From: Candidatus Sericytochromatia bacterium
Lineage (GTDB): Bacteria; Cyanobacteriota; Sericytochromatia; S15B-MN24; UBA4093
Direction: 5' to 3'
DNA length: 64,000 nt
Assembly: GCA_036676985.1 (NCBI GenBank)
Contig: JAKFBU010000027.1
Coordinates: 64,001-128,000 of the forward strand
Shown: one piece after another, positions 42,901-56,582 of the stretch
Numbering within the stretch: the first letter of the stretch is position 1
Layout: each line of letters opens with the position of its first letter
Translations under genes and position numbers: made by a program
The notes under the pieces: generated by a model
Seen by the model: the letters and a program-made list of their open reading frames with translations, nothing else
Databases searched by the model: none
What the model was told of the DNA's origin: nothing

Positions 42901-43137
42901 GAGGGTCTCGACCTCGGCCGGGGCGGCTCCCGGATACACCGTGTTGACGATGACCACCGGGAACTCGATGTTCGGAAACAGCTCCAGCGGCATGCGCGTG
43001 AACGAGCGGATCCCCAGCAGCGTCAGGATCAAGACGATGATGATCGTCGTGACCGGGTTCTTGATGAAGAAGGTGGAGAAGTTGTAGCTCTCCTGCTTCT
43101 CTCCGGGCTGTTCGAAGGCGCTATGCTCGTGGCTCAC
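39997..43137 (-). CDS. RND efflux permease (AcrB/SwrC-like)
   Basis: GILVDDAVV..ENI, RLRPILMTT, 1046 aa with 12-TM layout. Confidence 0.96.
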   Translation of the reverse strand: MSHEHSAFEQPGEKQESYNFSTFFIKNPVTTIIIVLILTLLGIRSFTRMPLELFPNIEFPVVIVNTVYPGAAPAEVETLVSKPIEDALAGINGLKNLHSTSKDGISTVVCEFELEVDNKNAASDVRDKVSAILYKLPKDVRPPAYMTWSSSNAPIVNYTITANMTDVALSTYIKDVIKPKLEQITGVAQIQMLGNAERTFEVALNPERLQTYNLSLPGVFQAIQAENYNLPGGKVEALPRELSLRTMGKFTGVEDLSRLYVTSPTGAQVQLKDLGTVRDTVKDRTTYASVDGKEAVFFSVMKQTDANSLEVVRKVDEKLAELEKAFPAGMAVVKASDTSHFVEQSNHAVWEHLIIGAILAVLVLFVFLRNVMAMIISGLAIPLSIFMAFVPMNLMGFSFNNITMMALSLVVGILVDDAVVDLENIYRHMEKGVPPLKAAIDATGEIQLAVTATTMTIVGVFLPMSFMTGYIGKFFRSFGLTVTFSVLFSLLIARTLTPMLSAYLLKVKPKPGHAGHDEDGDLSGRYPRLLAWCLKHRWVVVVGATVAFIGGMGLTPFIQKGFMGSADRGQFLLRVKLPTGTVLTETARVANDVARQVKAIPEVKHAFVMIGSTGNVDQASIEVHLVEKHERKKSDSVIAKEARELFTNMVGAKVMADEMGMVAGASNKPVQILMQGDNLEELRLYSEKLATAMHANQKFADVETSLGQERNELRVVPDRARMAQNGIQAMALANTLRLATTGDTPNTMTAGPNEIDVWVRLDPAYRKDVNSLTSLSIQGQRGSVPLGAVAEVQPGGGYAQIERKDRQRLVQVTANLVPGVSVGTATDFIEKQILPTMQLPPSVTVDMSGQAEQQRDSFSGFGQAMIMGVTLIFFILALQFSSFLHPFTIMFSLPLAIIGAMLGLLVFGKELGMMSLIGIIMLMGIVTKNAILIVDFILTMRDRGFTRTDAVLRASQVRLRPILMTTAAMVLGMLPMALGLGAGAEFRSPMAVVVIGGLITSTALTLVVVPVAYTLLDDLKEFFMRRIFRRRPPAAPHESPVAALVD

Positions 43138-44222
43138 TGGACGCCTCCTCCGACCGCGATCGGGTCACCGTTCTTGACGAAGGCCGCACCCTCGGTGATG
43201 ACGGGCGCGCCGGGCTGCAGGCCCGAGGTGACCTCCACCAGCTCGCCGGAGCGCAGGCCCGTGGTGACGACCACGCGCTCCGCCTTGCCGCCGGTGGCCA
43301 GGTAGACGATCTGCTCGGCGCCGTCGGTCAGGATGGCGGTGCCGGGCACGGCCAGGACGTTCTGGGTGGGGCCCGCGACGGTGCCGTTGACGTTCATGCC
43401 GACCTTGAGGCGGCCGGTCTGGGCGAGGTCCACCTTGACGGTGATGAGGCGGGTCTGCGGGTCGACCATCGGGGCGATCTCGCTGATCCGGCCCACGAAG
43501 GCCTCGCCTGGCAGGGCGACGCTCGTGACCGTCACGCGGCCGCCCTCGCGCACCAGCCCCAGGTCGCGCTCGGCGACGGGCAGCTTGGCCTGCAGGGACC
43601 CCGCCTGGGCGACGGTGACGATGGAGGTCGAGGGGCCCGCCATGGCGCCCACGTCGAGGCCCTTGGCGATGACGACGCCCGAAATGGGGCTCGTGATGGT
43701 CGCGTTGGCGAGCTGGCTCTCCATCAGGCTGATGGCGGCCTTGGCCTGCTTGACCTGGCTCGAGGCCACCTTGGCCTGGGTCTCGGCGGCCTTGAGCTGC
43801 TGCTGGCTGATGACGCCTTCGGTGGCGAGCTCGCGCATGCGCGAGAGGTTGTCCTCGGCCTGGTCCCGGTTGGCCTCGGCGCTGATGAGCGCGCTCTTCT
43901 GCTGCTGCAGCTGCCAGCCGAGCTCCGGCGTCTCGAGCACGGCGATCGTCTCGCCCTTGCGGACGCGGCTGCCTTCCTCGACCCGGAGCTCGAGAATGCG
44001 CCCGGAGGTCTTGGGCATGACGTTGACCTGGGACTTGGCGATGAGGGTGCCGTTCACCACGAGGTCCTTGGACATGGGGCGGGTGGTGGCGGGGACCGTC
44101 GCCACGGCCACCGGAGCCCGCGCGGCCTCCTGGTTCGTGTCCGCCTTGGGGCCGCGGCAGCCCACGACCAAGGTCACGGCCAGCGCGATCGACAGCCACG
44201 CAACTTTCTTCTGCACGATCAA
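43134..44222 (-). CDS. RND periplasmic adaptor (MFP), lipoprotein
   Basis: Lipobox VVGC, lipoyl half-motifs VEEGSRVRKG and ITSPISG, VDPQTR. Confidence 0.94.
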   Translation of the reverse strand: MIVQKKVAWLSIALAVTLVVGCRGPKADTNQEAARAPVAVATVPATTRPMSKDLVVNGTLIAKSQVNVMPKTSGRILELRVEEGSRVRKGETIAVLETPELGWQLQQQKSALISAEANRDQAEDNLSRMRELATEGVISQQQLKAAETQAKVASSQVKQAKAAISLMESQLANATITSPISGVVIAKGLDVGAMAGPSTSIVTVAQAGSLQAKLPVAERDLGLVREGGRVTVTSVALPGEAFVGRISEIAPMVDPQTRLITVKVDLAQTGRLKVGMNVNGTVAGPTQNVLAVPGTAILTDGAEQIVYLATGGKAERVVVTTGLRSGELVEVTSGLQPGAPVITEGAAFVKNGDPIAVGGGVQ

Positions 44223-44231
44223 GTTCCCTTT

Positions 44232-45620
44232 CTAAAGCCCCGGCCGCGTCGCCGTCCTGAGGTCCACCCCCAGGGCCTGCGCCACGCGCACCTCGGCCGC
44301 CTGTAGATCGTTATTCGCCTGGACGTAGGTATTTTGCGCCTGCACCAGCATCGTCTGGGCGTCGATGACTTCGTAACCCGTGCCGACGCCCGCATTGTAC
44401 CGCACTTGGGCCATCCGGTAGGACTCCTGCGAGACCTGGAGCCCCTTTTGGGCGATCCGGAGGCGATCGCGGGCGTCCTGGCGCGATAGGAGGGCGTTCT
44501 GGATGTCCATGCTCAGCTGCCGACGGGCGTTCTCGATGTTGAGGTCCGTCTGGCGGAGGTCCTGCTCGCTGGAGCGGACCTTGGCGTCGGCCTTGCCCCA
44601 GTCGATGAGGTTCCACTGCAAGGCCCCCAGGACCATGAAGGTCCGGCCGGTGCCGAGGCCTTGCTGGCTGTACTGTGCCTGGGCCTGGGCCTTGGGCATG
44701 TTGGCCGTGCGGTTCAGGTCCACGGTCGCCTCGTCCATCCGCCGCTTCAGTTGCAGCGTCTGGAGCTCGGGGCGGTTGGCGATCGCCGGTCCCAGGTCGT
44801 CCTCCAGGCCGAAGCCGACGGAGGCGAGGTTCAGCGAAGGCGACAGCGGACGGTTGCCAACGGGCTCGCCGAGCACGTTGGCGAGGTTCAGCCGGGCGAT
44901 CTCGACGCCGTTGGTGGTGCTTCTGAGCTGGCCCTGGACGTTGGCGAGCTGGCTTTCGGCCTGCAGCACGTCGAAGCGGGTGCCGGTGCCCGCGCGCTCG
45001 CGGACCTGGGCGGCCGCCACGTGGGACTGGGCCTGCTCGACCGCGCGCAGGGAGACCTCGCGCAGGCCTTCGGCGCGCAGCACCTGCACGTAGGCGTTGG
45101 CGGCGTCGTAGCTGGCCTTGCGGCGCTGGTTGGCGATGTCCACCCGGTTCATCTTGACCGAGGCGTCCGCGATCTTGAGGGCGTTGGCGGTCTGGAAGCC
45201 GTCGAAGAGCACCTGGGAGACCGAGAGCTGGGTCTGGATCATGTTGAAGGTGCTGCCGGCGCCGAAGCCCCCCAGGCCTCCGACTCCGCTCAGGCCGCCG
45301 AGTCCGCCGAGGCCCCCGAGCCCGCCGAGGCCGCCCAGCCCCCCCAGGCCGCCCATGCCGAGGCCGGCCGAGGCGCCCGCGTCGATCTGGCGGTAGCTAA
45401 GAGCGCTCGTCGTCAGGGAGAGCTGTGGATAGAGGCCCGCGTAGGTCTGCGAGATCTGGGTCTCGGACTGCGCGAGCTTGGCCTCGCTGACGGCGACCGA
45501 CAGGCTGTTGCGCTGCGCGATCTCGAGGGCCTGGTCGAGCGTGAGGGTCGCCTGGGCATAGGCGGCCGGCTGTGCGACGGCGACGAGTGCCGCCGCGGCG
45601 AGGATGGGAGGCAGCCTCAT
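44232..45620 (-). CDS. TolC family outer-membrane channel with a (GGL)n insertion
   Basis: Signal peptide, LTLDQAL, LFDG, RYNAGVG..EVIDAQ repeats. Confidence 0.93.
   Translation of the reverse strand: MRLPPILAAAALVAVAQPAAYAQATLTLDQALEIAQRNSLSVAVSEAKLAQSETQISQTYAGLYPQLSLTTSALSYRQIDAGASAGLGMGGLGGLGGLGGLGGLGGLGGLSGVGGLGGFGAGSTFNMIQTQLSVSQVLFDGFQTANALKIADASVKMNRVDIANQRRKASYDAANAYVQVLRAEGLREVSLRAVEQAQSHVAAAQVRERAGTGTRFDVLQAESQLANVQGQLRSTTNGVEIARLNLANVLGEPVGNRPLSPSLNLASVGFGLEDDLGPAIANRPELQTLQLKRRMDEATVDLNRTANMPKAQAQAQYSQQGLGTGRTFMVLGALQWNLIDWGKADAKVRSSEQDLRQTDLNIENARRQLSMDIQNALLSRQDARDRLRIAQKGLQVSQESYRMAQVRYNAGVGTGYEVIDAQTMLVQAQNTYVQANNDLQAAEVRVAQALGVDLRTATRPGL
45261..45365 (-). repeat. In-frame 9-nt degenerate repeat encoding (GGL)n
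   Basis: GLGMGGLGGLGGLGGLGGLGGLGGLSGVGGLGGFG with synonymous variation. Confidence 0.9.
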
Positions 45621-46621
45621 GGCGTCACCCGTTCGGGGTGGTACGAGAGCCCGAGCCCGTAGACGTTCGCGAAGTCATCGTAGGTGCTGCCCGCTCCGAA
45701 GTGGCGCGTGTAGCTGAGGTCGGCGCGCAGGCCCGGGAACAGGTTGTAGCCGAGCGTGAGGCCCGCCTCTCCCCAGTGCGGCGACGCGGGCGCCTGCGGG
45801 GCGGTCGTCACCGTCACCGCCGCCCAGGGCACGTACATGCCGTGGGCGATGACCTCGAAGGCGCCGATCCGGGTGCCGGCGTCGAGCGCGAGGCCCAGGC
45901 CCTGGCGCGTCTGGGCGTAGTCGGCCGTGGTGCCGGTCCATGGCGTGGTGCCGCTCGGCGTCAGGTAGTAGTTGCTGAGCAGGACCTGGGGCAGCAACTC
46001 GAAGCCGCCGAGCCCGAGCACGTAGCCGGCCGAGAGGTTCCACTGGGTGGTCTCGAGGGCGGGGGCGGGGTTCGGCTGGGTGGCGGCCGGACCGATGCTC
46101 ACGGGCGCCTTGACGCGGAAGCCCGTGAGGCCGAGGGCCCAGTCGTTGACGCGGTAGCGCGCCTCGCCGGCGAACTCGTTGTTGGCCCAGCCCGTCACGC
46201 TGCGGCCGCTCGAGGCGAGGTACTGGTCCCGCACGCGGTAGGACAGGCCGACCTGGGTGTCGAAGAGCCGATAGACGCCGATGGCGGCCTCGGGGGCGAC
46301 GGGCACGAAACCGGGGCGGTAGGTCGGCACCGGCCGCATGACGATGGTCTGGGCGGCCGAGACGGGGACCTCCTGGCTGAGGAAGCCGACGCCCGAGATG
46401 ACGAGCACCTGGCGGCCATTGGGATCGAGGCGCAGGGTGTACTGCCCGCGCGCGTCGGTGGTGGCCGAGGCGATGGCCCCCTGCTGCTGGACGAACAGGT
46501 TCGGGACGGGCTTGCCGTCGGGGCCCTGGACGCGGCCGGTCACGGTGACGTCGGCGGCGAAAGCGGGGGCGGCGAGGCTCAGGCCGAGCCCCATGGCGAA
46601 TAGGGTGGTGAAGGGTCGCAT
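45617..46621 (-). CDS. Secreted/outer-membrane protein: carboxypeptidase-regulatory-like domain plus beta-barrel
   Basis: Signal peptide, VTGRV..PDGKPVP..TTDARGQY, C-terminal YGLGLSY. Confidence 0.78.
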   Translation of the reverse strand: MRPFTTLFAMGLGLSLAAPAFAADVTVTGRVQGPDGKPVPNLFVQQQGAIASATTDARGQYTLRLDPNGRQVLVISGVGFLSQEVPVSAAQTIVMRPVPTYRPGFVPVAPEAAIGVYRLFDTQVGLSYRVRDQYLASSGRSVTGWANNEFAGEARYRVNDWALGLTGFRVKAPVSIGPAATQPNPAPALETTQWNLSAGYVLGLGGFELLPQVLLSNYYLTPSGTTPWTGTTADYAQTRQGLGLALDAGTRIGAFEVIAHGMYVPWAAVTVTTAPQAPASPHWGEAGLTLGYNLFPGLRADLSYTRHFGAGSTYDDFANVYGLGLSYHPERVTP

Positions 46622-46631
46622 GCTTTCCTCG

Positions 46632-47009
46632 TTACTGGAACGTGACCTGGGCGACCGCGACGTGATCGTTGTCGAGCACGAAGGACATGGTGGCCTGGTT
46701 CGAATTCATGGGGCGAAGCGGGGCCGTATTGGGAATGGCCGTGACGAGGTTGCTGCCCGTCGCAGACAGCGGGTAGGCGATGTTGTTGACGATCACCTTG
46801 ACGCTCGAGACCGACTGCCAGACGGCAGGGCGCGTGAAGCTGAGCGAGAGGGACTGACCGGTGGCGGTCACGTTGCTCGTCTCGGTGAGCGTGGTGGTCG
46901 GGACCTGCGCGGCGTCGCGCTGGCCCAGGTCGGCCCGGTAAGCGAGGCCCGAGTCGCAGCCCGCCAGCAAGAGGGCGGCCAGCGACGCGGTGAGGCATGG
47001 CTTGAACAT
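46632..47009 (-). CDS. Small beta-rich lipoprotein
   Basis: Lipobox LAGC; first gene of the efflux operon. Confidence 0.8.
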   Translation of the reverse strand: MFKPCLTASLAALLLAGCDSGLAYRADLGQRDAAQVPTTTLTETSNVTATGQSLSLSFTRPAVWQSVSSVKVIVNNIAYPLSATGSNLVTAIPNTAPLRPMNSNQATMSFVLDNDHVAVAQVTFQ

Positions 47010-47273
47010 GGTGGGGATCCTTTCGCCGGGAGCAGGGACAAGAGGCAGGCCAAAAAGTTTTACCGAAGTCTATGTTTAGGCTAGGCCGAGCCCCGATGAC
47101 TGTCAAGCCTCGGACGCGCCGGTTTCAAATCTTTACGCGGCCGATCCGGGCCCCGGGCGCTTAGCACGCGACGAAGGGTTGCGTAATGTGACCGTCATGC
47201 GCCGGTTTAACGGATGCAAAACGCTTCTTTTACATTGAGAGTCGTCGCCCCGGATCGAGGAAAGGAGCTTTCA

Positions 47274-47426
47274 ATGTTACGAGTGGATGCCTTCCTGAGC
47301 GCGAGCGATTACCCCGGTCATCGTCCGCAGCCCCTCCCGCGTCCCATGCCCAAGGAGCCCGCCAAGGCTGGTCAGTCCCTCAGCTTCGAAGAGGTCCTGC
47401 GGCAGGTCCAGCGCACCGGCCGCTAA
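47274..47426 (+). CDS. 50-aa small protein
   Basis: AAAGGAG RBS; Pro-rich linker then SLSFEEVLRQ helix. Confidence 0.6.
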   Translation: MLRVDAFLSASDYPGHRPQPLPRPMPKEPAKAGQSLSFEEVLRQVQRTGR

Positions 47427-47461
47427 GTCGGATCACCTCTCCAGCGTGGGATGCGCCCAGA

Positions 47462-49789
47462 TCAGGTGAGCAGACTCGCGAGCGAGGCACGGGCCATGCG
47501 CTCCCGGTAGGCCCGCTGCTCCATGGCCGTCTGATAGGAGCGCAGGTGCCGGAGCGGGATGTCGCTCGCAGGGGCCTTGAGCACGGACCATTCGTTTCCC
47601 CGCTCGACCAGGATGCCGGCCTCGCGGAAGATGGCGAGCGCCGTGAGGCCCGTCAAGGGCGATTCGTCGGCGATCCGCATGGCGAGTTCCCGTAACGACG
47701 CATGGGGCTCGTCGGCCAGCGCGAAGTAGAATTGCTGCAGCCAGGTGGGGGTGATGTCGGGCTCGTCCGCCGCGTCCCCCCATGCGAGCACCAGCCGGGT
47801 GGCGCGTCCGCGCAGGATGGTCCAGGCCATCTCGTCGCACGGCACGTCCACGCAGAGCACCACCCCGGGGTCCGCGACCAGACCCGTCGCCGGGCCGGTG
47901 AACCCGGCCCCGGAGGCCTGCATCGCCGCGACGAGCCTGGGATCCAGGCGTTCCACCCCGCCCCGGTTGGCGTAGACCGTGACCCGGGTGCCCGGCGCGA
48001 GCTCGTCCAGGATCCGCCAGGGGGCGTCGCCCCGCCGATCCTCGACCGGGGCGATCGCCCGGCTCGACGTCACCTCGAGCTCGACGGGCGCCGGCGCCTC
48101 GGCGGGCTCGATGCGCTGGGCCAAGTATTGAAGCGATCGCTGCCCCCGGAAGACGTTGATCTGCGGCTGGTACCACAGGTGGACCCAGCCCTTGCCCAGG
48201 GTCTCGATGGGGTGCGGCACGTCCTCGGAAGGCCGCCAGACGATCACCTCGCGTACGTCCCGGCCGTCGTCGATCTGTAGGGCCACCCGCTTGCCATGTT
48301 GGCGCTTGCCAAGCAGCCGGGCATGCGTGAGCCCGAACACGGGCGCCGGGTTCTTCTGCCCGAAGGGCTCGAGGGTCTCCAGATGGCCCAAGAGTGCCTC
48401 GTCCGCCTCGCGGAAGGGCAACAGGGCATCCAGCCACACGATGTCCGCGGGTCGGGTCCAACCGACGTCTGCGACGTAGCGGTTGAGGGCGGCGCGCAGG
48501 GGGCCGAGCTCCTCTTCCATGGCCGAGCAGCCGGCGGCCTGCGCATGCCCGCCGAAGCCCAGGAGGTGTTCCCGACAGGCGTGCAGGGCCTCGTAGAGAT
48601 GCAGGCCTTCGGGGCTGCGCCCGGATCCCTTCCAGACGCCATGGCCGTGGTCCGAGAAGAGCAGGACCGGGACCCGGTAGCGCTCCTTGATGCGGCCCGC
48701 GACGATGCCCGTGATGCCGTGGTGGTAGCGGGCATCGGCCAGGACCACGAAGGGCTCGGCGTCCAGATCGAGCTCGCGCTCGATCCGGGCGAGGATTTCT
48801 CCTTCCAGCTCCGCATTGAGCTCCCGGCGCTGGGCGTTGATCTGGTCCAGCTCCGCGGCATGGCGCTGGGCCTCCGCTCCGTCGTTGGTGGCCAGGAGCC
48901 TGAAGCCCACGTCCGGCGTCTCCAGCCGGCCGGCGGCGTTGAGGCGGGGCCCGAAGCGGAAGCCGATGTGCTGCGGCGAGAAGTCGGGCCAGTTGATGCG
49001 CGTGATCTCACCCAGCGCCCGCACGCCGGGCAGCATCTTGCCGGAGCGCATGCGCTCGATGCCCGCCCAGACGAGGGGACGGTTGGGGCCGTTGAGCGGC
49101 ACCATGTCCGCCACCGTGCCGATGGCTACCAGATCCAGGAAGGTCTCCATGCGGCTCGTGAACCCGCCCTCGAGGGCCAGCGTCAGGAGGTAGGCCACCC
49201 CAACTCCCGCCATGTCCTTGAGGTGCGCGAACTCCACCTGCGGGTGGACGATCGAGTAGACGTTCGGCAGCTCCTCGGGCACCTGGTGGTGGTCCGTGAC
49301 GATGAGGTCGATACCACATGCCTGCGCGGCGGCGGCAGCCGGATGGGCCGAGATGCCGTTGTCGCAGGTGACGATGACCTTGACGCCCTCGGCGGCGAGA
49401 CGCTCGACGGCCGCCGGCGTGACGCCGTAGCCGTCTTTGAAGCGATCGGGCAGGTACGCGCGGGCGTTGGCTTTCATGCCCCGGGCGAGGTAGCGGTAGA
49501 GCAGGGTCGAGGACGTCACGCCGTCGCAGTCGTAGTCCCCGTAGATGACCATGGCCTCCTGTCGATCGACGGCCTGCCGGATCCGGGCGACGGCACGCTC
49601 CATGCCTGCCGTGGCGATCGGAGCCTTCAGGTAGTCGAGCGAGTCGCGGCTCGCCAGAAAGGCGCGCGCCACCTCCGGGGTGGTGAAGCCCCGGAGCCAC
49701 ATGACACGGGCAACGGCCCGCGGCAGGCCGAGGGCGCTCGCGAGCCGATCGACCTCCGTCTCGTCGGCGGGTCTGATGAGCCAGGTCAT
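47462..49789 (-). CDS. recJ: Single-stranded-DNA exonuclease RecJ with C-terminal extension
   Basis: YGDYDCDG, DRFKDGYG, TCDNG, TDHH, GTVAD, PRLNAAGR, FGGHAQAAG, LEPFGQKNP. Confidence 0.96.
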   Translation of the reverse strand: MTWLIRPADETEVDRLASALGLPRAVARVMWLRGFTTPEVARAFLASRDSLDYLKAPIATAGMERAVARIRQAVDRQEAMVIYGDYDCDGVTSSTLLYRYLARGMKANARAYLPDRFKDGYGVTPAAVERLAAEGVKVIVTCDNGISAHPAAAAAQACGIDLIVTDHHQVPEELPNVYSIVHPQVEFAHLKDMAGVGVAYLLTLALEGGFTSRMETFLDLVAIGTVADMVPLNGPNRPLVWAGIERMRSGKMLPGVRALGEITRINWPDFSPQHIGFRFGPRLNAAGRLETPDVGFRLLATNDGAEAQRHAAELDQINAQRRELNAELEGEILARIERELDLDAEPFVVLADARYHHGITGIVAGRIKERYRVPVLLFSDHGHGVWKGSGRSPEGLHLYEALHACREHLLGFGGHAQAAGCSAMEEELGPLRAALNRYVADVGWTRPADIVWLDALLPFREADEALLGHLETLEPFGQKNPAPVFGLTHARLLGKRQHGKRVALQIDDGRDVREVIVWRPSEDVPHPIETLGKGWVHLWYQPQINVFRGQRSLQYLAQRIEPAEAPAPVELEVTSSRAIAPVEDRRGDAPWRILDELAPGTRVTVYANRGGVERLDPRLVAAMQASGAGFTGPATGLVADPGVVLCVDVPCDEMAWTILRGRATRLVLAWGDAADEPDITPTWLQQFYFALADEPHASLRELAMRIADESPLTGLTALAIFREAGILVERGNEWSVLKAPASDIPLRHLRSYQTAMEQRAYRERMARASLASLLT

Positions 49790-50604
49790 GGCACCTCCGG
49801 ATCGAGCGTGAACAGGGGCAGGGGCAGCTGGATCGGGGCGACGGCGTCGGCCGAGAGGGTCACCGGGTGGCAGTAGGACTCGAACGAGCAGCGAGCGCAG
49901 TGCGCCCGGTTGCGCGTGCGCGGAAAGCTCGGATCATCCGGGCGGGTCTCGTCGAAGGGCTGCAGGACCTTGGTGGCCAGCTCGTCGAAGTGGGACCGGT
50001 CAGCCTCGAAGGTCGCAAGGTCGTAGCGAAACTCCTCGGGGCGGGCCCGCTGCACGTCCCAGTAGGTCATGCGCACGCGCTCCGGGTCGATGGGGCGGCC
50101 GTCGTCGTAGACGGCCCCCGCCTGAACCAGGGCGAAGCGGTAGAGCCGCGTCTGGTTGCTCTTCTCGAGCGTGTTGCGGGTCGTCTTGCCCGTCTTCCAG
50201 TCGAGGATCTCCCAGTCGTCCCCGTCTTTGACGAGCCGATCGTAGCGGACCATGAAGGGGGCGCCCGCGAAGGTGAAGTGCAGGGGCGCCTCGGTGTGGA
50301 CCTCGCCCTTGGGGCGCGCGTGCGGCGAGGCCGAGTACATCGTCCAGAGCACGCCCAGGCGCGGCAGCCGCTCGGCCTCGGCGGCGAGCACACCCTTCAC
50401 GTCCATGCCCATGGCCTGCTGCTGGACGAGGCGGTGGAAGAGCTGGCCGGTGCGGATGGCGGCGGTGGCCTCCGGGTCGGAGTCGAAGGACAGGGGCCCT
50501 GGCCAGTAGCGACTCGCCTTGTACTTCAAAGCGAAGCGGCGCGGGCACTCGTCGAGGTCACCCAGGCTGTGCTGGCTGATCCGCGGGGTCTCGAGCCGGC
50601 TCAT
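49786..50604 (-). CDS. PD-(D/E)XK nuclease, Cas4/AddB/RecB-like, with 4-Cys Fe-S staple
   Basis: CPRRF, GQLFH, RYD, LDWKTG, QTRLY, CARC-x5-C; ATGA-coupled at both ends. Confidence 0.9.
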   Translation of the reverse strand: MSRLETPRISQHSLGDLDECPRRFALKYKASRYWPGPLSFDSDPEATAAIRTGQLFHRLVQQQAMGMDVKGVLAAEAERLPRLGVLWTMYSASPHARPKGEVHTEAPLHFTFAGAPFMVRYDRLVKDGDDWEILDWKTGKTTRNTLEKSNQTRLYRFALVQAGAVYDDGRPIDPERVRMTYWDVQRARPEEFRYDLATFEADRSHFDELATKVLQPFDETRPDDPSFPRTRNRAHCARCSFESYCHPVTLSADAVAPIQLPLPLFTLDPEVP

Positions 50605-52817
50605 GACGGGCATCCTTTCGCGAGCTCGAGGACGTGGGTCGGTGCCATGCGCTCGGGCTTGAAGCCGTAGGCGGAGAGCGTCAGGTGCTCTTCGGCGCGG
50701 GTGATGCCGACGTAGAGCAGGCGCAACCGTTCGGCCACGGCCACCTGGTGGGCGGCGCGCTCCAGCGCTTCGATCCGCGGGCGGGGCTGGTCGTTGGCAT
50801 GGGCGATCGTCTGCTCGGCCACGAAGGCGTCGCGATCCCAGATCTCGACCTCGTCCAGGCGCCAGGGGAACCAGGTCTTGTCCCCGTAGTAATAGCCGAG
50901 GTTGGGGATCCAGACGGCCTCGTACTCGGCTCCCTTGGACTTGTGCAGCGTGAGGATCTCGATCTCGCCGGGCTTGGGCGGGACGAGCTCCTGGGCGCCA
51001 TGGCCGAAGGAACGCTTCTCGGCCGTGACGGCGAGTTCATCGAGCGCCTGTTGGACCTGGCGCAGGGGATCGTCCAGGTCCAACCAGTCGTCGCCCTCCC
51101 GGGTCGGCTGGAAGGGCAGCCGTCCCTGCAGGTCGCGGGCCACGGCCGCCGCCTTGGAGGCGAGCACCTGGGCGCTCGGATCCGGCAACAGCTCGCGCGC
51201 GATGGTGGGCAGGAGCTCCACCGGCGGCAGGTGTCGGGCGTCGAGCAGGACGCGCATGCGCCGGGCCACGATCACCGCGAGGGCATAGTCGGCCTCCCCG
51301 AGGCTCGCGGGCCGCGCGGGGGGCAGTCCCTCCGTCGGGTAGACCAGGCCGTCCAGCACGCCGGGGGCGAGCAGGTGCGCGCGCAGCGCCTTGAGATCGA
51401 AGAGGGGCTCCTTGCGGGCCGCGCACACGGCCTCGAGCAGCTCGACGAAGGACTCGGCCTGGCGCTGCGGGGGGATCGAGAGGAAGGTCAGCGCCCGCTT
51501 GAGCACGGCGATGACGAGGCCCCCCCCGGATTTGGCCTGCTCGGGAGCGTACACGGGCAGGTCCATGAGCCGGGCCGTGTCGGCGTAGGCCTCGCCCATG
51601 GTCCCCGAGTAGCAGAGGATGGCGACGCGGGCGTGGGGCTTCTTTTGAAGGTAGGCCCGGACCTCGCTCAGGATGCCCTGGCGCTCGTCGTCCTTGTTCC
51701 CGTAGGTTTTCCATCGGACCGAGCAGCGCGCGGGATCGGGGTTGAGCTTGCCGGCGGTCGCCACCTGGATGGCAACGGGATCGAAGGCCTCCCGGACCTC
51801 GGGGTCGGGGTGGGTGCGGGCGATCGCCACCAGGTTGTTGGCCAGTTCCAGGATCGGGCGTCCGCTCCGGCTGCTCTCGGCCATGGTGACCCGACGGCCC
51901 TCGGACTCGCAGGCATCGCAGAAGGCCCGGAAGAAGCGCGGATCGTTGAAGGTGAAGCTGCTCGTGATGGCCTGGTTGGAGTCGCCGACGCGCACCAGGT
52001 TGCCGGCCCCGCCGTGGGCGGTATCCGTCAGGAGCGTGATGAGGCGGTTCTGAGCGGGCGTCGAGTCCTGGGCCTCGTCCTCCATGACAAAGCGGAAGCG
52101 GCGCTGGTACCAGGCGAGCAGCTCCGGAGTCGTCTCCAGGAGCCGGATGGCCTGCTGGATCTGGTCGTCGTAGTCCACCGCGCGCCGGCCGTGCAGCTCG
52201 GAGGCGTAGGCGCGGTACAGGTAAGGGATCTCCGGCTGCTGGTCGCCCAGCAGCCGCTCCACCGCGTCGGGGGTGAGCCCGAAGTTCTTGGCCGCCGAGA
52301 TGGCCTTGAGGGCCGCGCCGATGGTCTTGCGCCGCGGGTCCTGGTTGAAGGCGTCGCCCTTCGGACGGCCGTAGCGGGCCTCCCAGTTGGTCCGGGCGGC
52401 CGGATCCCGCAGGTAGGCCTCCAGGTGCGGCAGGAGGATCAGCTCCTGTTCGGCGTCCGAGAGGATGATGAGGCCGTCGTAGCCGGAATCGGCGTCGCTG
52501 AAGCGCTCATAGTGGCGCTTGATGACCGAGAGACAGAAGGCATGGATGGTGCTCGAGGTGAGCCCATAGGCCGTGAGCCCCCGCTCCTGCAAGAGGACGG
52601 CGATCCGGCGCTTGAAGGTGTTGGCCGCCGAGCGCATGTAGGTGAGGATGAGGAGCTCGGAGGGCTTGGCATGCCCTTCCTCGATGAGCTTGGCGGCGAG
52701 CCGGGTCAGGATGAAGGTCTTTCCGGCGCCCGGTACGGCGGCGATCGCCATGCGACCGCCCGTGTAGGCGAGGATGTCCCGCTGAGCAGGACGCAGCGAC
52801 TCAAGCTCGACGCCCAT
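50601..52817 (-). CDS. UvrD/PcrA-type SF1A helicase
   Basis: AVPGAGKT, TYMRSAA, TIHAFC, DEAQD, VGDSNQAI, TLHKSKG, LYVGITRA. Confidence 0.94.
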   Translation of the reverse strand: MGVELESLRPAQRDILAYTGGRMAIAAVPGAGKTFILTRLAAKLIEEGHAKPSELLILTYMRSAANTFKRRIAVLLQERGLTAYGLTSSTIHAFCLSVIKRHYERFSDADSGYDGLIILSDAEQELILLPHLEAYLRDPAARTNWEARYGRPKGDAFNQDPRRKTIGAALKAISAAKNFGLTPDAVERLLGDQQPEIPYLYRAYASELHGRRAVDYDDQIQQAIRLLETTPELLAWYQRRFRFVMEDEAQDSTPAQNRLITLLTDTAHGGAGNLVRVGDSNQAITSSFTFNDPRFFRAFCDACESEGRRVTMAESSRSGRPILELANNLVAIARTHPDPEVREAFDPVAIQVATAGKLNPDPARCSVRWKTYGNKDDERQGILSEVRAYLQKKPHARVAILCYSGTMGEAYADTARLMDLPVYAPEQAKSGGGLVIAVLKRALTFLSIPPQRQAESFVELLEAVCAARKEPLFDLKALRAHLLAPGVLDGLVYPTEGLPPARPASLGEADYALAVIVARRMRVLLDARHLPPVELLPTIARELLPDPSAQVLASKAAAVARDLQGRLPFQPTREGDDWLDLDDPLRQVQQALDELAVTAEKRSFGHGAQELVPPKPGEIEILTLHKSKGAEYEAVWIPNLGYYYGDKTWFPWRLDEVEIWDRDAFVAEQTIAHANDQPRPRIEALERAAHQVAVAERLRLLYVGITRAEEHLTLSAYGFKPERMAPTHVLELAKGCPS

Positions 52818-55065
52818 GGCGGCCTCCGGCGAGAGACTCGAAGAGCCACGGGAGCTCACCGGCCTGCTCGCGCCCCTCGGCATCGGTCAGGCAGGAGAAG
52901 ACCCTCAGGCTCTCTTTGGGCAGGCGGCAGAGGGCCCAGAGGTTCTTGGCGAGCTTGTCGGCGGCGTCCGCCTCCTCGTCCTCGAAGCGGTAGGCGCCGC
53001 CCGGCCATGCGGCAGCGAGTACCCGGGCGTTGGTCAGCTCCTTGCGATCGCGCTTGAGCCAGCGCGCGGAACCCACGTCCATGAGGTAGAGGTGGCGAAG
53101 GGGGCGCTCGGAGGCTCCCTTTTCCGCGAGCTGGCTCGCGGTGGCGAGCATGACCGAGACGCGGTGCGGCTCGCGCCTGAAAAAGGGGCGCTCGGCGATG
53201 GTGCCCGCGTGCAGGAAGCGCAGGAACGACCACTCCCAGGACGTCCGGTCCGCGCCGTCCGGCTGGGGATCCTCGAGGCGCGGCGGCACGGTGCCGACCC
53301 GCTCCAGCACCGCTCGATAGGACTCGGTCAGCTCGATGAGCTGGCCGATCTGGCTGATCTCGCGCTGCCAGGCCTCATGGGCTTCGACGCCCGAGAGGCT
53401 CGCCTGGCGAGCGGGGGCGAAGCGCTGGGCGAAGGCCTGGCGCAGGAAGGCCGGAAGATCCGGGCGGGACTCGGGCGATCGCCGCGCCTCGATCCAGTCG
53501 TATAGGGACCGGTACCCGGCGCGGGCGCGGTTGGTGACGGCCTCGCCCACGATCTCGAGCTGGTCCGGGTGGTTGAGGCCCGCATCCGTGGTGAGCTTGT
53601 CCGCGAGACGGCCCAGTTGCAGGGGGTTGAGCCCCGTCTCGAGCTCCAGGAGTTCGATCCACTCGTAGCGGCCCGGAGGCAGCTTCCACTCGGGGTGGCA
53701 GAGCTTGGCGAGCGTCATGAGGATCCGCACGGCGCGATTCTGGATCAGGCGGTTGGTGCCCGCGTACACATACAGGGGAATGCCATGCCGCGTGAGTCGG
53801 TTCTGGAGGCCCCAGAGCAGGAAGGCGTCGATGGAGGGGGCCACGAGCGCCACCTCCTCGCGATCGACCCCCGCGTCGAAGCATGCGACCAGATCCGCCA
53901 CCACCGCGTCGAGCATGTCCTCGAAGGCATAGCGGTCCGACCGGACGAGGACGCCTTCGGGCAGCGCCAGGGGAGCGCCCTGATAGCCGCTGCGCACTCC
54001 GGCGTGGAGGGCGCGCGCCAGCGTGGCCAGTCCCGCCTCGGCAGGCGTCGGATCCGGCGTCATGAGGGTCTCGGTCTCCCAGTCGCCGGCCAGGCTCCAG
54101 GCGCCGGCGGGGTCGGCCCCGACATAGGCGCGCAGGCCGCCTAGTATGGGGCCCTCGGGGCCCTGGTCGGCCTGCATGGTGGCGAAGAGGCGCACGCTGT
54201 TGGCCTCGAGCGTCCTGAAGATCCGGTGCCAGCGGGGCGGAAGCTCGTCGAGCCGCTCGACGAGGACATGCCGGAGGCGATCGCAGAGCGCCCGGCGGTA
54301 CCGCTCGTCCGCGAGCAGTACGCCGTCGTAGAGATCCAGCTGAAGGGCGTAGTCCAGACAGCGGTGGCGGAGCATGTGCTCGACATAGCGGGTCAGGCAC
54401 TGTTCCACTCCCTGGAAGATCGGGGACAGGGAGGACTGACCGCCCGCACCCTCGTGGAGGCGGCGGGCGATGGCCCGGGCGAGGCCCCCGGCGTCGCCGT
54501 CATGCGCGGTGAGGGAATGGCCGTTCTCGATGCCGCGCGCCAGCGCGTCCAGGAGCTGGATGTTCTGGAGGTGCGGGGGCGAGTCGCTGCCCGCGAGGCA
54601 GTCGGAGTCGGGAGCGCGCACTTCGGAGGTGAAGCGCGTCATCAGGTACTGGGACAGGTCGATGGCGACGGCGAAGGGCTCCGCGTACCGCAGCGGCGCG
54701 CCTTCGGGTCCGGTGGAGGCGTAGCCCCAGTCCTCCAGCCGCTCGTCGACCAAGGGCCACCAGAGCTTCAGCTCCTCTCGAATGAACGCTGCCGGAGTGT
54801 GGACGCGCTGCGCGCCGGTCGGAAGCTCCAGGGCCCCAGCCGCGGTCCAGGGCCGGGCCTCGGGGGCGATGTGCGGCTCGGGGTCGCCCTTTAGGAGCGA
54901 CGTCCAGCGGGTGCGCGTCGTTCCCTCCAGGAGGACGAGCACGGCGTCGCTCGGGATGCCGGCCTTCAAGAGGGCCGTGTACCGCTCCCAGAGCCCGTCG
55001 GACAGCGCCTCACGCGGCATGCCGGCAAGGTAGGCGCTGTTTTCGGTCGGGGCGATCGCGCGCAT
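52801..55065 (-). CDS. Inactivated SF1-helicase-like protein (AddB/RecC-like scaffold)
   Basis: No Walker A; degenerate motifs LDYALQ, HVLVERLDE, RAYVGADP, EVALVAP, GIPLYV..VRILMTL; overlaps the helicase start. Confidence 0.7.
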   Translation of the reverse strand: MRAIAPTENSAYLAGMPREALSDGLWERYTALLKAGIPSDAVLVLLEGTTRTRWTSLLKGDPEPHIAPEARPWTAAGALELPTGAQRVHTPAAFIREELKLWWPLVDERLEDWGYASTGPEGAPLRYAEPFAVAIDLSQYLMTRFTSEVRAPDSDCLAGSDSPPHLQNIQLLDALARGIENGHSLTAHDGDAGGLARAIARRLHEGAGGQSSLSPIFQGVEQCLTRYVEHMLRHRCLDYALQLDLYDGVLLADERYRRALCDRLRHVLVERLDELPPRWHRIFRTLEANSVRLFATMQADQGPEGPILGGLRAYVGADPAGAWSLAGDWETETLMTPDPTPAEAGLATLARALHAGVRSGYQGAPLALPEGVLVRSDRYAFEDMLDAVVADLVACFDAGVDREEVALVAPSIDAFLLWGLQNRLTRHGIPLYVYAGTNRLIQNRAVRILMTLAKLCHPEWKLPPGRYEWIELLELETGLNPLQLGRLADKLTTDAGLNHPDQLEIVGEAVTNRARAGYRSLYDWIEARRSPESRPDLPAFLRQAFAQRFAPARQASLSGVEAHEAWQREISQIGQLIELTESYRAVLERVGTVPPRLEDPQPDGADRTSWEWSFLRFLHAGTIAERPFFRREPHRVSVMLATASQLAEKGASERPLRHLYLMDVGSARWLKRDRKELTNARVLAAAWPGGAYRFEDEEADAADKLAKNLWALCRLPKESLRVFSCLTDAEGREQAGELPWLFESLAGGRHGRRA

Positions 55066-55247
55066 GAAGGGGGCTCGCTGGGTAAGAAAGGGAACGACCC
55101 CATCTTACCAGGCGAGGGTTTGCCCGTTCAAGCGAGCGTCGGCAGGGCCTCGCGGCCATCCGCGGCGACCCGGAACGAGGTCGCCCGGGCCGGTACGAGG
55201 GGAAAGGGGCGCCACGCAGGCGCCGAAAACAGGAGACGGACGGGACC

Positions 55248-56582
55248 ATGCCGCCAAAGCCGACGCCGACACCCAGCCCCTTCGACCAGACGGCCGAGCG
55301 AGCGGCTACCCTGCCGGACAATCCCTTCCTCAAGGCCGAGGCCCACTGGACGAGCCAGGCCTTCGGCGGCATCGTCGCCGAGCTCGAGAGCGCCATCCAG
55401 CAGACGCAGGGCAAGCTAGGCGAGGCATGGGAGCAGGGAGCGCGGACGGGCTACGATCTCGGGTTCCAAGCGGGCGCCAAGGAAACCGAGGCCGAGCTCA
55501 GGGCCTTCTACGAGGGGGCCTTGACCGAGCAGGAGGCCCAGGCCGCGCGAGAGCTCGAGGAGTTGCGCGATCGCCTGCACGCCGAGCATGAGGCCGAGCT
55601 TGCGGCCCTGAGGGACAGCACCCGTCGAGAGATCGAGCGCCTCGGCACGGAGCAGGCGGCCAAGCTCGCGAACCTCGAGGACACGGTGCGGCGTGAGACG
55701 GAGCTCGAGCTGCAGCATCGCTTCACGACCGAGCTCGCCCAGGCCGAGGCGCGCGTCCGCCGGGAGACCGAGCAGGAGCTGCAGCAGCGTTTCACGACCG
55801 AGCGCGGCCAGGCCGAGGCGCGGGTCCGCCGGGACATCGAGCAGGAGCTGCAGCAGCGCTTCAGCGAGCAGCTCCATGAGGTCGAGACCCGGGTCCGGCG
55901 GGACACCGAGCTTGCAACGCGACGGGCGATGGAGAGCGAGCGCCCGACTCCGGCCGAGACGCCCGAACCCGCCGATCCGGACGCCCTGCGGCAGGCCCGG
56001 GCCGAGGGCTACACCCAGGGCCTCAACGAGAGTGCTCGCCGCTACGAGGAGACCATGAGCCGGGCGGCCCTGGAGCGTCGGGAAGCCGCGGAAGAGGCCT
56101 ATCGCAAGGGCTTCGACGCGGCGCAGGCCCAGACGGAGAAGGAGCTGAAGGCCGCCCACCAGGAAGGCTACCGCCAGGGGCTGCAGGAGGCGGGCCAGGA
56201 GTTTGCGACGACCGCCGCCGGGGTGCCGGGGCCGCTCCTGGACGAGGCGCGACGCCAGGCTTACGAGAACGGGTACGAGGACGGCCGCAGCGTGGGGCTG
56301 TCCCGGGGGCGCCGCCAGGCCGAGGCGGAGCAGGTGAGCCGGCTGCAGGAGGCCACCCGGATCGCCTACCGGGAGGGGTTCCTCGACGGCAAGCGGACGG
56401 TCGCGGACGCCGAGCGCTCTTGGGCCTTCGGCGTGTTGCACCTGCCGCCGGACGCCACGACGGGCGAGGTGAAGCAGCATTACAAGCGCCTGAGCATGGC
56501 CCTGCACCCCGATCAGAACCCTCAGCTCGCCGACGTGTTCATCAAGAACCTCAACCGCGCCAAGCAACTGCTCGACGGCTGA
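55248..56582 (+). CDS. Coiled-coil protein with FliH-like AxxxGxxxG repeats and a C-terminal J domain
   Basis: AYENGYEDG-type repeats; AFGVL...VKQHYKRLSMALHPD..LNRAKQLL. Confidence 0.85.
   Translation: MPPKPTPTPSPFDQTAERAATLPDNPFLKAEAHWTSQAFGGIVAELESAIQQTQGKLGEAWEQGARTGYDLGFQAGAKETEAELRAFYEGALTEQEAQAARELEELRDRLHAEHEAELAALRDSTRREIERLGTEQAAKLANLEDTVRRETELELQHRFTTELAQAEARVRRETEQELQQRFTTERGQAEARVRRDIEQELQQRFSEQLHEVETRVRRDTELATRRAMESERPTPAETPEPADPDALRQARAEGYTQGLNESARRYEETMSRAALERREAAEEAYRKGFDAAQAQTEKELKAAHQEGYRQGLQEAGQEFATTAAGVPGPLLDEARRQAYENGYEDGRSVGLSRGRRQAEAEQVSRLQEATRIAYREGFLDGKRTVADAERSWAFGVLHLPPDATTGEVKQHYKRLSMALHPDQNPQLADVFIKNLNRAKQLLDG
55686..55913 (+). repeat. About 3 in-frame 69-nt (23-aa) tandem repeats
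   Basis: Units start at 55719, 55788, 55857 (RFTTELAQAEARVRRETEQELQQ). Confidence 0.9.

Follow-up and report, generated by a model that had tools for sequence, protein, structure and literature searches.

The window analysed in this study is a stretch of 64,000 nucleotides from a Candidatus Sericytochromatia bacterium of the phylum Cyanobacteriota (assembly GCA_036676985.1, contig JAKFBU010000027.1, positions 64,001 to 128,000 of the forward strand). Its G+C content is 68%, the host draft genome comprises 4.68 Mb in 79 contigs (completeness 100, contamination 5.09), and the nearest relatives of its proteins carry names such as 'Candidatus Sericytochromatia bacterium' or 'Cyanobacteria bacterium'. 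The block between positions 47462 and 55065 of the window is filled by four open reading frames (ORFs) on the minus strand, here termed g1 to g4, which, as judged from sequence comparisons and structural models, likely encode the parts of a single DNA-end-processing machine of the AddAB/AdnAB type that is split into separate proteins. The features of this locus are:

52801..55065, minus strand: g1, putatively inactivated helicase-fold subunit of superfamily 1A (SF1A), 754 amino acids (aa), assigned from the ORF, a fold model and motif comparison
50601..52817, minus strand: g2, predicted SF1A motor of the UvrD clade, with its start set at the ATG at 52817; matches PF00580 and PF13361
49786..50604, minus strand: g3, predicted free iron–sulphur (Fe–S) nuclease with four cysteines, of the PD-(D/E)XK fold and the AddB/AdnA/Cas4 kind, 275 aa in its longest ORF; matches PF12705
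47462..49789, minus strand: g4, predicted long-form RecJ, 775 aa, with DHH, DHHA1 and OB domains followed by a C-terminal domain; matches TIGR00644
55066..55247, minus strand: intergenic stretch 5' of g1, common to a divergent DnaJ-domain gene, defined by reading of the sequence

The overlaps between consecutive genes suggest that the translation of g1 to g4 is coupled. A first-pass annotation of this DNA had described four overlapping genes with an overlap of 17 nucleotides (nt) followed by two ATGA couplings, and the junctions read exactly in this way: an in-frame ATG at 52817, located within the longest g2 ORF (50601-52883, 760 aa), generates a 17-nt overlap with g1, whose stop codon is found at 52801-52803, an ATGA at 50601-50604 connects g2 to g3, and another one at 49786-49789 connects g3 to g4. 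The start of g3 could be either the coupled ATG at 50604 or the ATG at 50613, latter of which would result in an overlap of 13 nt and corresponds to the longest ORF (49786-50613, 275 aa). The promoter of the four genes is presumably located in the stretch 55066..55247. A consensus scan of 46900-55400 detected neither a sigma-70-like promoter nor a terminator-like site, and the absence of such sites inside the block fits with a single transcription unit but is no proof of it.

The relationship of g1 to helicases is concealed in its sequence. Since searches in Pfam, NCBIfam, PADLOC and the sequences of the PDB returned no match, and the Pfam search no nuclease domain of the PDDEXK type, its SF1A origin is revealed solely by fold comparison and by distant relatives. 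A model of g1 obtained with AlphaFold2 from an alignment of 24 sequences (predicted local distance difference test, pLDDT, 85.7; predicted template-modelling score, pTM, 0.88) displays a complete SF1A helicase with its four subdomains. In a Foldseek search, this model matches UvrD with an E-value (E) of 2e-16 and AddB, AdnA/B and RecB likewise with a probability of 1.00, which confirms the SF1 fold that had been proposed from the order of degenerate motifs. Superposition with VIA-align provided Z-scores of 25.6 for UvrD, 22.9 for AdnB (604 residues, root mean square deviation 4.5), 20.6 for AdnA, 20.2 for RecB and 19.9 for AddB (about 610 residues), and the modelled fold of g1 cannot separate between the families of UvrD, AdnA/B, RecB and AddB.

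The probable history of the protein is reflected in its wider family, for which a phmmer search of the full library retrieved 337 representatives at E ≤ 0.001. Its distant members match PF00580 directly and carry the Walker A sequence GPAGxGKTT. At the equivalent position, proteins of the window's g1 clade contain the sequence LAGMPREALSD, whereas GPAGxGKTT is found in most of the wider family, with Walker A being kept in 101 of 136 full-length representatives. Similarly, motif II reads VERLDE in the g1 of the window compared to VDNxEE (DNxEE) in the wider family. In light of these differences, g1 would be a helicase homologue whose ATP site was lost in the lineage of the window, and the catalytic glutamate of motif II appears to be replaced throughout the family. 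With its retained P-loop and a motif II that is changed to DNxEE, the wider family looks similar to AddB, which equally retains a P-loop. The initial description of g1 as a dead helicase thus stands for the window's clade, where both Walker A and the DExx box are gone, but not for the wider family. Within the clade, the identity between g1 sequences ranges from 39 to 80% and many positions are invariant. One relative of g1, P0023 (1,025 aa), is extended at its N-terminus by about 290 residues, which include a DUF4145 domain (PF13643) and a stretch resembling a coiled coil. An Atlas cluster of relatives of g1 is automatically named 'Cyanobacterial membrane protein, in cluster with PxcA', which seems ill-chosen for a soluble protein with a helicase fold.

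The second gene shows the properties of a motor. Its product matches PF00580 (E 1.4e-42) and PF13361, contains no nuclease domain detectable in the Pfam search, and shows no variation among 16 of 16 clade members in its Walker A motif, in the sequences DEAQD and GDxNQ and, within motif VI, in the TR, in full agreement with its earlier assignment as an intact UvrD-type helicase without fused nuclease. At the same time, g2 remains below all equivalog cut-offs of NCBIfam for PcrA, UvrD, Rep, AddA and RecB, with a best score of 130 bits for PcrA, UvrD and Rep, whose cut-offs are 911-1168, and of 105 bits for the addA model TIGR02785, whose cut-off is 707.65. In a tree of 22 rows, g2 is placed together with its oxygenic cyanobacterial orthologues and the helicase portions of the fused proteins described below, and a branch of 1.93 with a value of 100 in the Shimodaira–Hasegawa-like approximate likelihood-ratio test (SH-aLRT) divides this clade from the PcrA/UvrD group.

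The product of g3 matches PF12705 (PDDEXK_1, E 1.2e-25) and shows no match to PF01930 (Cas_Cas4, DUF83), which is also the case for its oxygenic orthologues. Its residues C23, C239, C242, C248, D125, D138-x-K140 and Q154..Y158 are invariant in nine of nine orthologues, and the invariance of the four cysteines together with the family match upholds the original assignment as free nuclease with four presumed Fe–S cysteines. Within the genome of the window, PF01930 solely matches another nuclease. This second free Cas4-like protein, P0197 (about 269 aa), is encoded outside the window on contig C25 (G000 contig C25:28827-29753; loci L001 and L111), matches both PF12705 and PF01930, contains one N-terminal cysteine and a C-terminal CxxCx5C motif and is not matched by the g3 profile. 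It was considered as a conserved second nuclease of the machine and provisionally dropped, as a single query found no counterpart in five oxygenic genomes.

The fourth gene had been identified as recJ, and this holds up in family searches, where its product scores 467 bits on the recJ model TIGR00644 (cut-off 396.9) and contains the domains PF01368, PF02272 and PF17768 (DHH, DHHA1 and OB). It is a bona fide RecJ and would thus act as 5'-3' exonuclease on single-stranded DNA. Its C-terminal 211 residues were modelled with a pLDDT of 87 and find their best fold match in the C-terminal part of Staphylococcus aureus RecJ (8y30_A, E 1.8e-5), a resemblance that defines g4 as a long-form RecJ whose extension is not a new module. 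A second and shorter RecJ is encoded on contig C6 of the same genome.

A physical link between two of the proteins is suggested by structure prediction. A complex of residues 9-748 of g1 and 8-262 of g3, each with its own alignment, was modelled alongside three controls. The interaction prediction score from aligned errors (ipSAE) of the pair amounts to 0.82, 0.81 and 0.84, compared to 0.00 for the best of the three controls, with a pLDDT of the partner of at least 82 and at least 69% of contacts shared between runs. In the calibration of the tool, 58 of 80 solved complexes attained the mark, compared to 2 of 110 mismatched pairs, counts that are only roughly valid for g1 and g3 because of the use of own alignments. 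The contacts comprise residues 80-86, 101-105, 542-577 and 630-632 of g1 and 34-45, 61-79 and 109-114 of g3, and the interface overlaps with invariant or near-invariant positions of both proteins (W103, F545, S571, Q572, G574 and Q575 of g1; W37, P38, G69 and L111 of g3). It is thus g3 for which an interface with g1, implied by the earlier view of these proteins as one assembly, is predicted, and g1 would in this arrangement serve as its docking platform.

The association of the four genes extends beyond the window. A scan of species genomes yielded 12 loci, all from Sericytochromatia or from metagenome-assembled genomes labelled 'cyanobacteria', and a scan of metagenomes with a different, Walker-A-positive branch of g1 yielded 16 loci with a G+C content of 35-73%, the gene content being determined by tblastn in both cases. 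The order g1-g2-g3-g4 is found in seven of eight informative Sericytochromatia loci, with four further loci ending at a contig edge, and in eight of the nine metagenome loci that reach far enough (G+C 44-73%), where g1 is followed by a g2-like gene in every one of the 14 loci that extend beyond it at all. Named relatives of the metagenome branch belong to Desulfotomaculales, Chloroflexota, Anaerolineae and Longilinea, in agreement with the Atlas clusters. Since the same gene order is found in unrelated records, the cluster is more than a product of chance, and it recurs in at least three phyla. The first-pass annotation had made joint conservation of the genes a test of their common function and had named relatives in cyanobacteria and clostridia; both are borne out, the former by the described loci and the latter by g1 matches throughout the phylum and by relatives with Desulfotomaculales names.

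The proximity of the first two genes culminates in fused proteins of about 1,300-1,450 aa (among them proteins of about 1,390-1,450 aa), which combine a g1-like portion with a complete UvrD-type portion that is placed in the g2 clade. Family f9 of the phylum has its fused frame, with a length of 1,301 aa in G048, directly ahead of g3. In a Desulfotomaculales-like metagenome contig (L112), a gene encoding a 385-aa N6/N4 DNA methylase (PF01555; L112:13190-14347, plus strand) is located between g3 and RecJ, where it overlaps with the stop codon of g3, and a SpoIID gene follows after RecJ. The methylase could hint at the marking of self and non-self in that lineage.

Within the phylum, 401 genomes were sampled, of which 383 are matched by a g1 profile at E ≤ 1e-5, the weakest of these matches (1e-6 to 1e-12) probably being cross-hits to other helicases. 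Co-occurrence was investigated, as plain counts, in a fixed set of 80 genomes from 42 coded families with g1 counted at E ≤ 1e-15; related genomes among them are not independent. In this set, 65 genomes contain both g1 and g3, 13 contain neither, two contain only g1 (G010 and G052) and none contains only g3. An orthologue of g2, counted as present at a best E ≤ 1e-71 or as part of a fused frame about 1,290 aa long, is found in 66 of the 67 g1-positive genomes, the exception being G213. In the 13 g1-negative genomes, the best g2 matches reach E-values of only 1e-20 to 4e-57, the same as observed for PcrA-type second matches elsewhere. Each of five oxygenic genomes contains exactly two UvrD-like genes, one of the g2 and one of the PcrA clade, and a single g3 orthologue that is positive for PF12705 and negative for PF01930. 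At the oxygenic g1 loci (L051-L069, e.g. L051:11559-12959), g1 is divergent from a conserved gene for a membrane protein of about 430-460 aa in 14 of 18 cases, which, going by the name of the Atlas cluster of g1 relatives, is possibly PxcA/CemA.

The distribution of g1 and g3 is also reflected in that of established machines. RecC is present in six of six genomes of family f25, all of which lack both g1 and g3. The genome G001, from a genus in the order of the window, equally lacks both genes and holds at C15:68870-73547 an adjacent AddAB-like pair, consisting of an AddB-like frame of 1,090 aa (PDDEXK_1) and an AddA-like frame of 1,229 aa (UvrD and PDDEXK_1). Neither RecC nor any PDDEXK_1 was found in four genomes of family f27 and in G237, and G134 contains a sub-threshold match only. 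The genome of the window (completeness 100%) shows no match to RecC (PF04257) or ADDB_N (PF21445), none of its three UvrD-like genes is fused to a nuclease and its only two PDDEXK_1 proteins are both small. A canonical machine, whose presence would have contradicted the first reading of the operon, was thus searched for in this genome and not found, neither as RecC or ADDB_N nor as fused helicase-nuclease.

The history of RecJ was followed in trees of 17 and 24 rows. Oxygenic genomes contain two RecJ clades, a and b, with clade b scoring 186-230 bits and clade a 320-336 bits on the E. coli-type model NF008290. The lower score of clade b fits the definition of 'RecJcy' given in the available text of PMC5101192. 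In the trees, the sister of g4 and its orthologues from Sericytochromatia is the RecJ encoded on contig C6 of the window's genome (support 96/96 and 99, SH-aLRT 99) rather than clade b, and an orthology of g4 to RecJcy is therefore unsupported by both of them. The RecJ proteins of the clusters L122 and L126 group with clade b (97), whereas L112 and L115-L119 contribute a third group. The cluster's RecJ is thus no single orthologous lineage, but three lineages keep a RecJ at this position. The C-terminal extension was tried as a marker of a cyanobacterium-wide RecJcy and discarded, as its profile is found in only 8 of the 80 genomes. In the oxygenic family f14, the g3 orthologue shares the strand of RecJ-b and is located upstream of it at a distance of 88-1,284 nt in six of six genomes; both genes are 6 kb apart in one f10 genome and unlinked in 12 others.

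The genes that flank the operon, which include an ABC transporter, are unrelated to it. A gap of 355 nt 3' of RecJ is followed by genes for a CarboxypepD_reg-domain protein, an OEP outer-membrane efflux protein and an HlyD-type membrane-fusion protein (43134-46621, minus strand). On the opposite side, a gene divergent from g1 (55248-56582, plus strand) encodes a protein of 444 aa with a C-terminal DnaJ domain containing an HPD motif. Ahead of this domain, 'RRETEQELQQRFT'-like units are repeated within a long charged region.

The composition of the cluster can be related to the three known machines for the processing of DNA ends. As in AddAB, one active SF1A motor would be combined with a helicase-fold subunit that is no motor, in roles assigned to g2 and g1, and an Fe–S nuclease of the RecB family would be associated with the non-motor subunit, here by the predicted binding of g3 to g1. 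In AddAB, however, a RecB-type nuclease domain is fused to each subunit, whereas g1 and g2 carry none, and the two nucleases of this type contrast with the one of the cluster, which is a separate protein of 275 aa. Further differences from AddAB concern the presence of RecJ in the window's operon, the family cut-offs of AddA, AddB and ADDB_N, none of which is reached, and the g1 clade, which has lost even Walker A. AdnAB is, similarly, a heterodimer of two UvrD-like SF1A subunits, with AdnB and AdnA being among the best rigid-body matches to the g1 model, and its AdnA subunit bears an Fe4S4 nuclease cutting the 5' strand (PMC12094033, available text). Yet both of its subunits contain a fused C-terminal nuclease and their own ATPase motifs, in contrast to the free nuclease, the g1 without ATPase motifs and the added RecJ of the cluster. 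With RecBCD, the system shares an inactive helicase fold without ATP site, in form of RecC and the g1 of the window's clade, and its distribution in the phylum is complementary, as seen in f25. It differs from RecBCD in lacking a match to RecC and a RecD-like second motor in the cluster, and in its separate, predicted Fe–S nuclease, as the nuclease of RecB is fused and contains no Fe–S cluster. By its lack of fused nucleases and by the family models, the system stands outside AddAB, AdnAB and RecBCD, yet on present evidence it would work like them.

Parts of the system have likely been encountered before. An operon of an unfused UvrD and a Cas4-like protein, found 'mostly' in Clostridiales, was described by Hudaiberdiev et al. 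2017 (PMC5704561) with the suggestion of a joint role in repair rather than defence, and probably corresponds to the same g2-g3 pair. The available text of that study names no subunit of the g1 type and makes no tie to cyanobacteria or to a displacement of RecBCD/AddAB, and the term 'RecJ' has 0 occurrences in its main text. No description of the four-gene cluster or of the g1 family was found in the literature searched. Genetic data come from Synechococcus elongatus PCC 7942, where, according to the available text of PMC10653904, the loss of ago, cas4, uvrD, recJcy, rpoD2 or Synpcc7942_0992 favours the conjugation or maintenance of RSF1010, and where losing any one of the six is likewise of advantage for natural transformation in random barcode transposon-site sequencing (RB-TnSeq). 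The same text describes Synpcc7942_0992 as 'PD-(D/E)XK endonuclease-like domain' and names PcrA and RecJ as paralogues, and a second study, as far as its text is available, counts homologues of Argonaute and Cas4 in a group of 12 genes, the loss of which enhances transformation (PMC7125226). The S. elongatus set is reminiscent of the cluster, since a UvrD that differs from its paralogue PcrA, a paralogue of RecJ and nucleases of the Cas4-like or PD-(D/E)XK kind are combined in it under one phenotype. Unlike in the cluster, the genes are dispersed, the text at hand does not propose them as one machine, and RecJcy belongs to the RecJ-b clade and not to that of g4. By elimination, and not from S. 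elongatus sequences, the uvrD of the screen would be the orthologue of g2, and Synpcc7942_0992 is a likelier orthologue of g3 than cas4.

Several observations weigh against the assignment of these genes to a single machine. Locus L018 contains g1, g2 and g3 but no RecJ in the next 4 kb, RecJ is equally absent in L127, which carries three genes, and the RecJ proteins of the clusters are split over three separate clades. In oxygenic cyanobacteria, g1 stands alone in 18 of 18 loci, with about 9 kb around it free of g2, g3 and RecJ apart from one RecJ at a distance of 8 kb, and as the genes are dispersed, their link in these organisms is based on co-occurrence among related genomes. A g1 orthologue is also missing from the six genes quoted in the available text of PMC10653904. 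The score of the g1-g3 complex may partly stem from solved AddB and AdnA chains, in which a helicase fold and an Fe–S nuclease are part of one polypeptide. Finally, the mutual exclusion with recBCD/addAB that the first-pass annotation had suggested looking for holds in f25 and G001 but is broken where RecC coexists with g1 and g2, namely in two genomes of family f5 and in G136, whose contamination is 9%, and exclusion is therefore a tendency rather than a rule.

In spite of these points, the view of g1 to g4 as one split AddAB/AdnAB-type machine remains the one we consider likely. In the corresponding mechanism, the complex would bind to the end of a DNA duplex, which would be unwound by g2 as the single 3'-5' SF1A motor. 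The helicase-fold subunit g1, itself devoid of ATPase activity, would partner g2 in a presumed contact and carry g3, so that g1 and g3 together would represent a split AddB/AdnA. The 5' strand would be handed to g3 and RecJ for destruction, with g4 as dedicated 5'-3' exonuclease extending the degradation, in an assignment of strands and a specificity for ends that we infer, and the 3' tail would remain for RecA. The same activity would degrade linear or foreign DNA, and any control by Chi-like sites is likewise presumed. The proposal of a dead helicase combined with a motor and a detached nuclease is in this respect supported and widened to several phyla, whereas an activity in resection is what we infer from it.

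The phenotypes in S. elongatus could alternatively point to a module that is chiefly directed against plasmids and other foreign DNA, which it would shred upon entry or replication, either alone or as generator of Argonaute guides, and for which the repair of chromosomes would be secondary at best. The sole printed phenotype of likely orthologues in the available texts is an improvement in plasmid maintenance and transformation upon their loss, along with ago (PMC10653904, PMC7125226), and guide generation is described as unexplained in species without AddAB/RecBCD (PMC12094033, available text). The Argonaute model PF02171 matched nothing in the genome of the window, but likewise nothing in S. 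elongatus, which has an Argonaute, so that this negative carries no weight. The DNA methylase gene between g3 and RecJ in one Desulfotomaculales-like cluster and the generic GajB-type PADLOC matches of g2 would be in line with such a role. We nevertheless regard it as unlikely that defence is the main purpose, since the genes occur as single copies across almost every sampled family of the phylum, unlike patchy defence islands, and since RecBCD or AddAB replace them where they are missing. Moreover, the efflux, ABC-transporter and DnaJ-domain genes in the vicinity of the operon include no defence gene, and g1, g3 and g4 match no specific PADLOC family and show no Gabija matches, with no search made for GajA. 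As RecBCD and AddAB do both jobs, this alternative differs from a repair machine in emphasis more than in mechanism.

A different role is conceivable at gaps and forks, where a UvrD-type helicase and RecJ would cooperate in the manner of the RecF route, g1 and g3 being accessory proteins at stalled forks. In E. coli and Thermus, gaps and stalled forks are indeed sites of action of RecJ and UvrD-type helicases (cited in the available text of PMC10653904), and the retention of a separate housekeeping RecJ and of two other UvrD-like helicases in the genome counts in favour of this proposal. It is in our view decidedly improbable, as the pair of an inactive and an active SF1A fold with an Fe–S nuclease of the RecB type is the signature of the end-binding AddAB and AdnAB, as RecBCD likewise pairs the inactive RecC with motor subunits, and as the distribution of the genes is complementary to RecC and AddAB. 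That the four genes are mere neighbours, with g1 being a decayed helicase relic without a role and the others acting separately, would account for its lost ATPase motifs and its isolation in oxygenic cyanobacteria, but can hardly be reconciled with the identity and invariant positions within the g1 clade, the matches in 383 of 401 genomes, the fusion to g2 in some lineages, the concordance with g3 in all but two of the 80 genomes and the predicted binding to g3, and is hence highly improbable.

The proposed end-processing machine relates to a gap in the biology of the phylum. Most cyanobacteria contain neither RecBCD nor AddAB, with marine Prochlorococcus and Synechococcus having RecBCD, and what processes DNA ends or makes Argonaute guides in most of them is stated as unknown in the available texts of PMC5101192 and PMC12094033, latter of which refers to guide generation in species without AddAB/RecBCD as unexplained. 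The described machine is probably a functional stand-in for RecBCD/AddAB in most Cyanobacteriota, and it is also found in some Bacillota and Chloroflexota. Whether it constitutes a fourth class of bacterial machine for the resection of double-strand breaks beside RecBCD, AddAB and AdnAB, found in at least three phyla and built from a single UvrD-clade motor, a non-motor SF1A subunit holding a detachable Fe–S nuclease and an integral co-encoded RecJ, and whether it would be the long-missing end-processing enzyme of nearly all cyanobacteria that also supplies DNA guides to Argonaute, is a proposal for which we see the balance as even. The operon of the window physically joins genes that are scattered in model cyanobacteria and adds g1 as an unannotated partner, by which the unexplained cas4, uvrD, recJcy and Synpcc7942_0992 of the transposon screens would become components of a one-machine hypothesis. 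Such a machine would have a bearing on transformation efficiency and plasmid stability in the engineering of cyanobacteria, and it would illustrate that helicase-nuclease machines can be built from separate parts.

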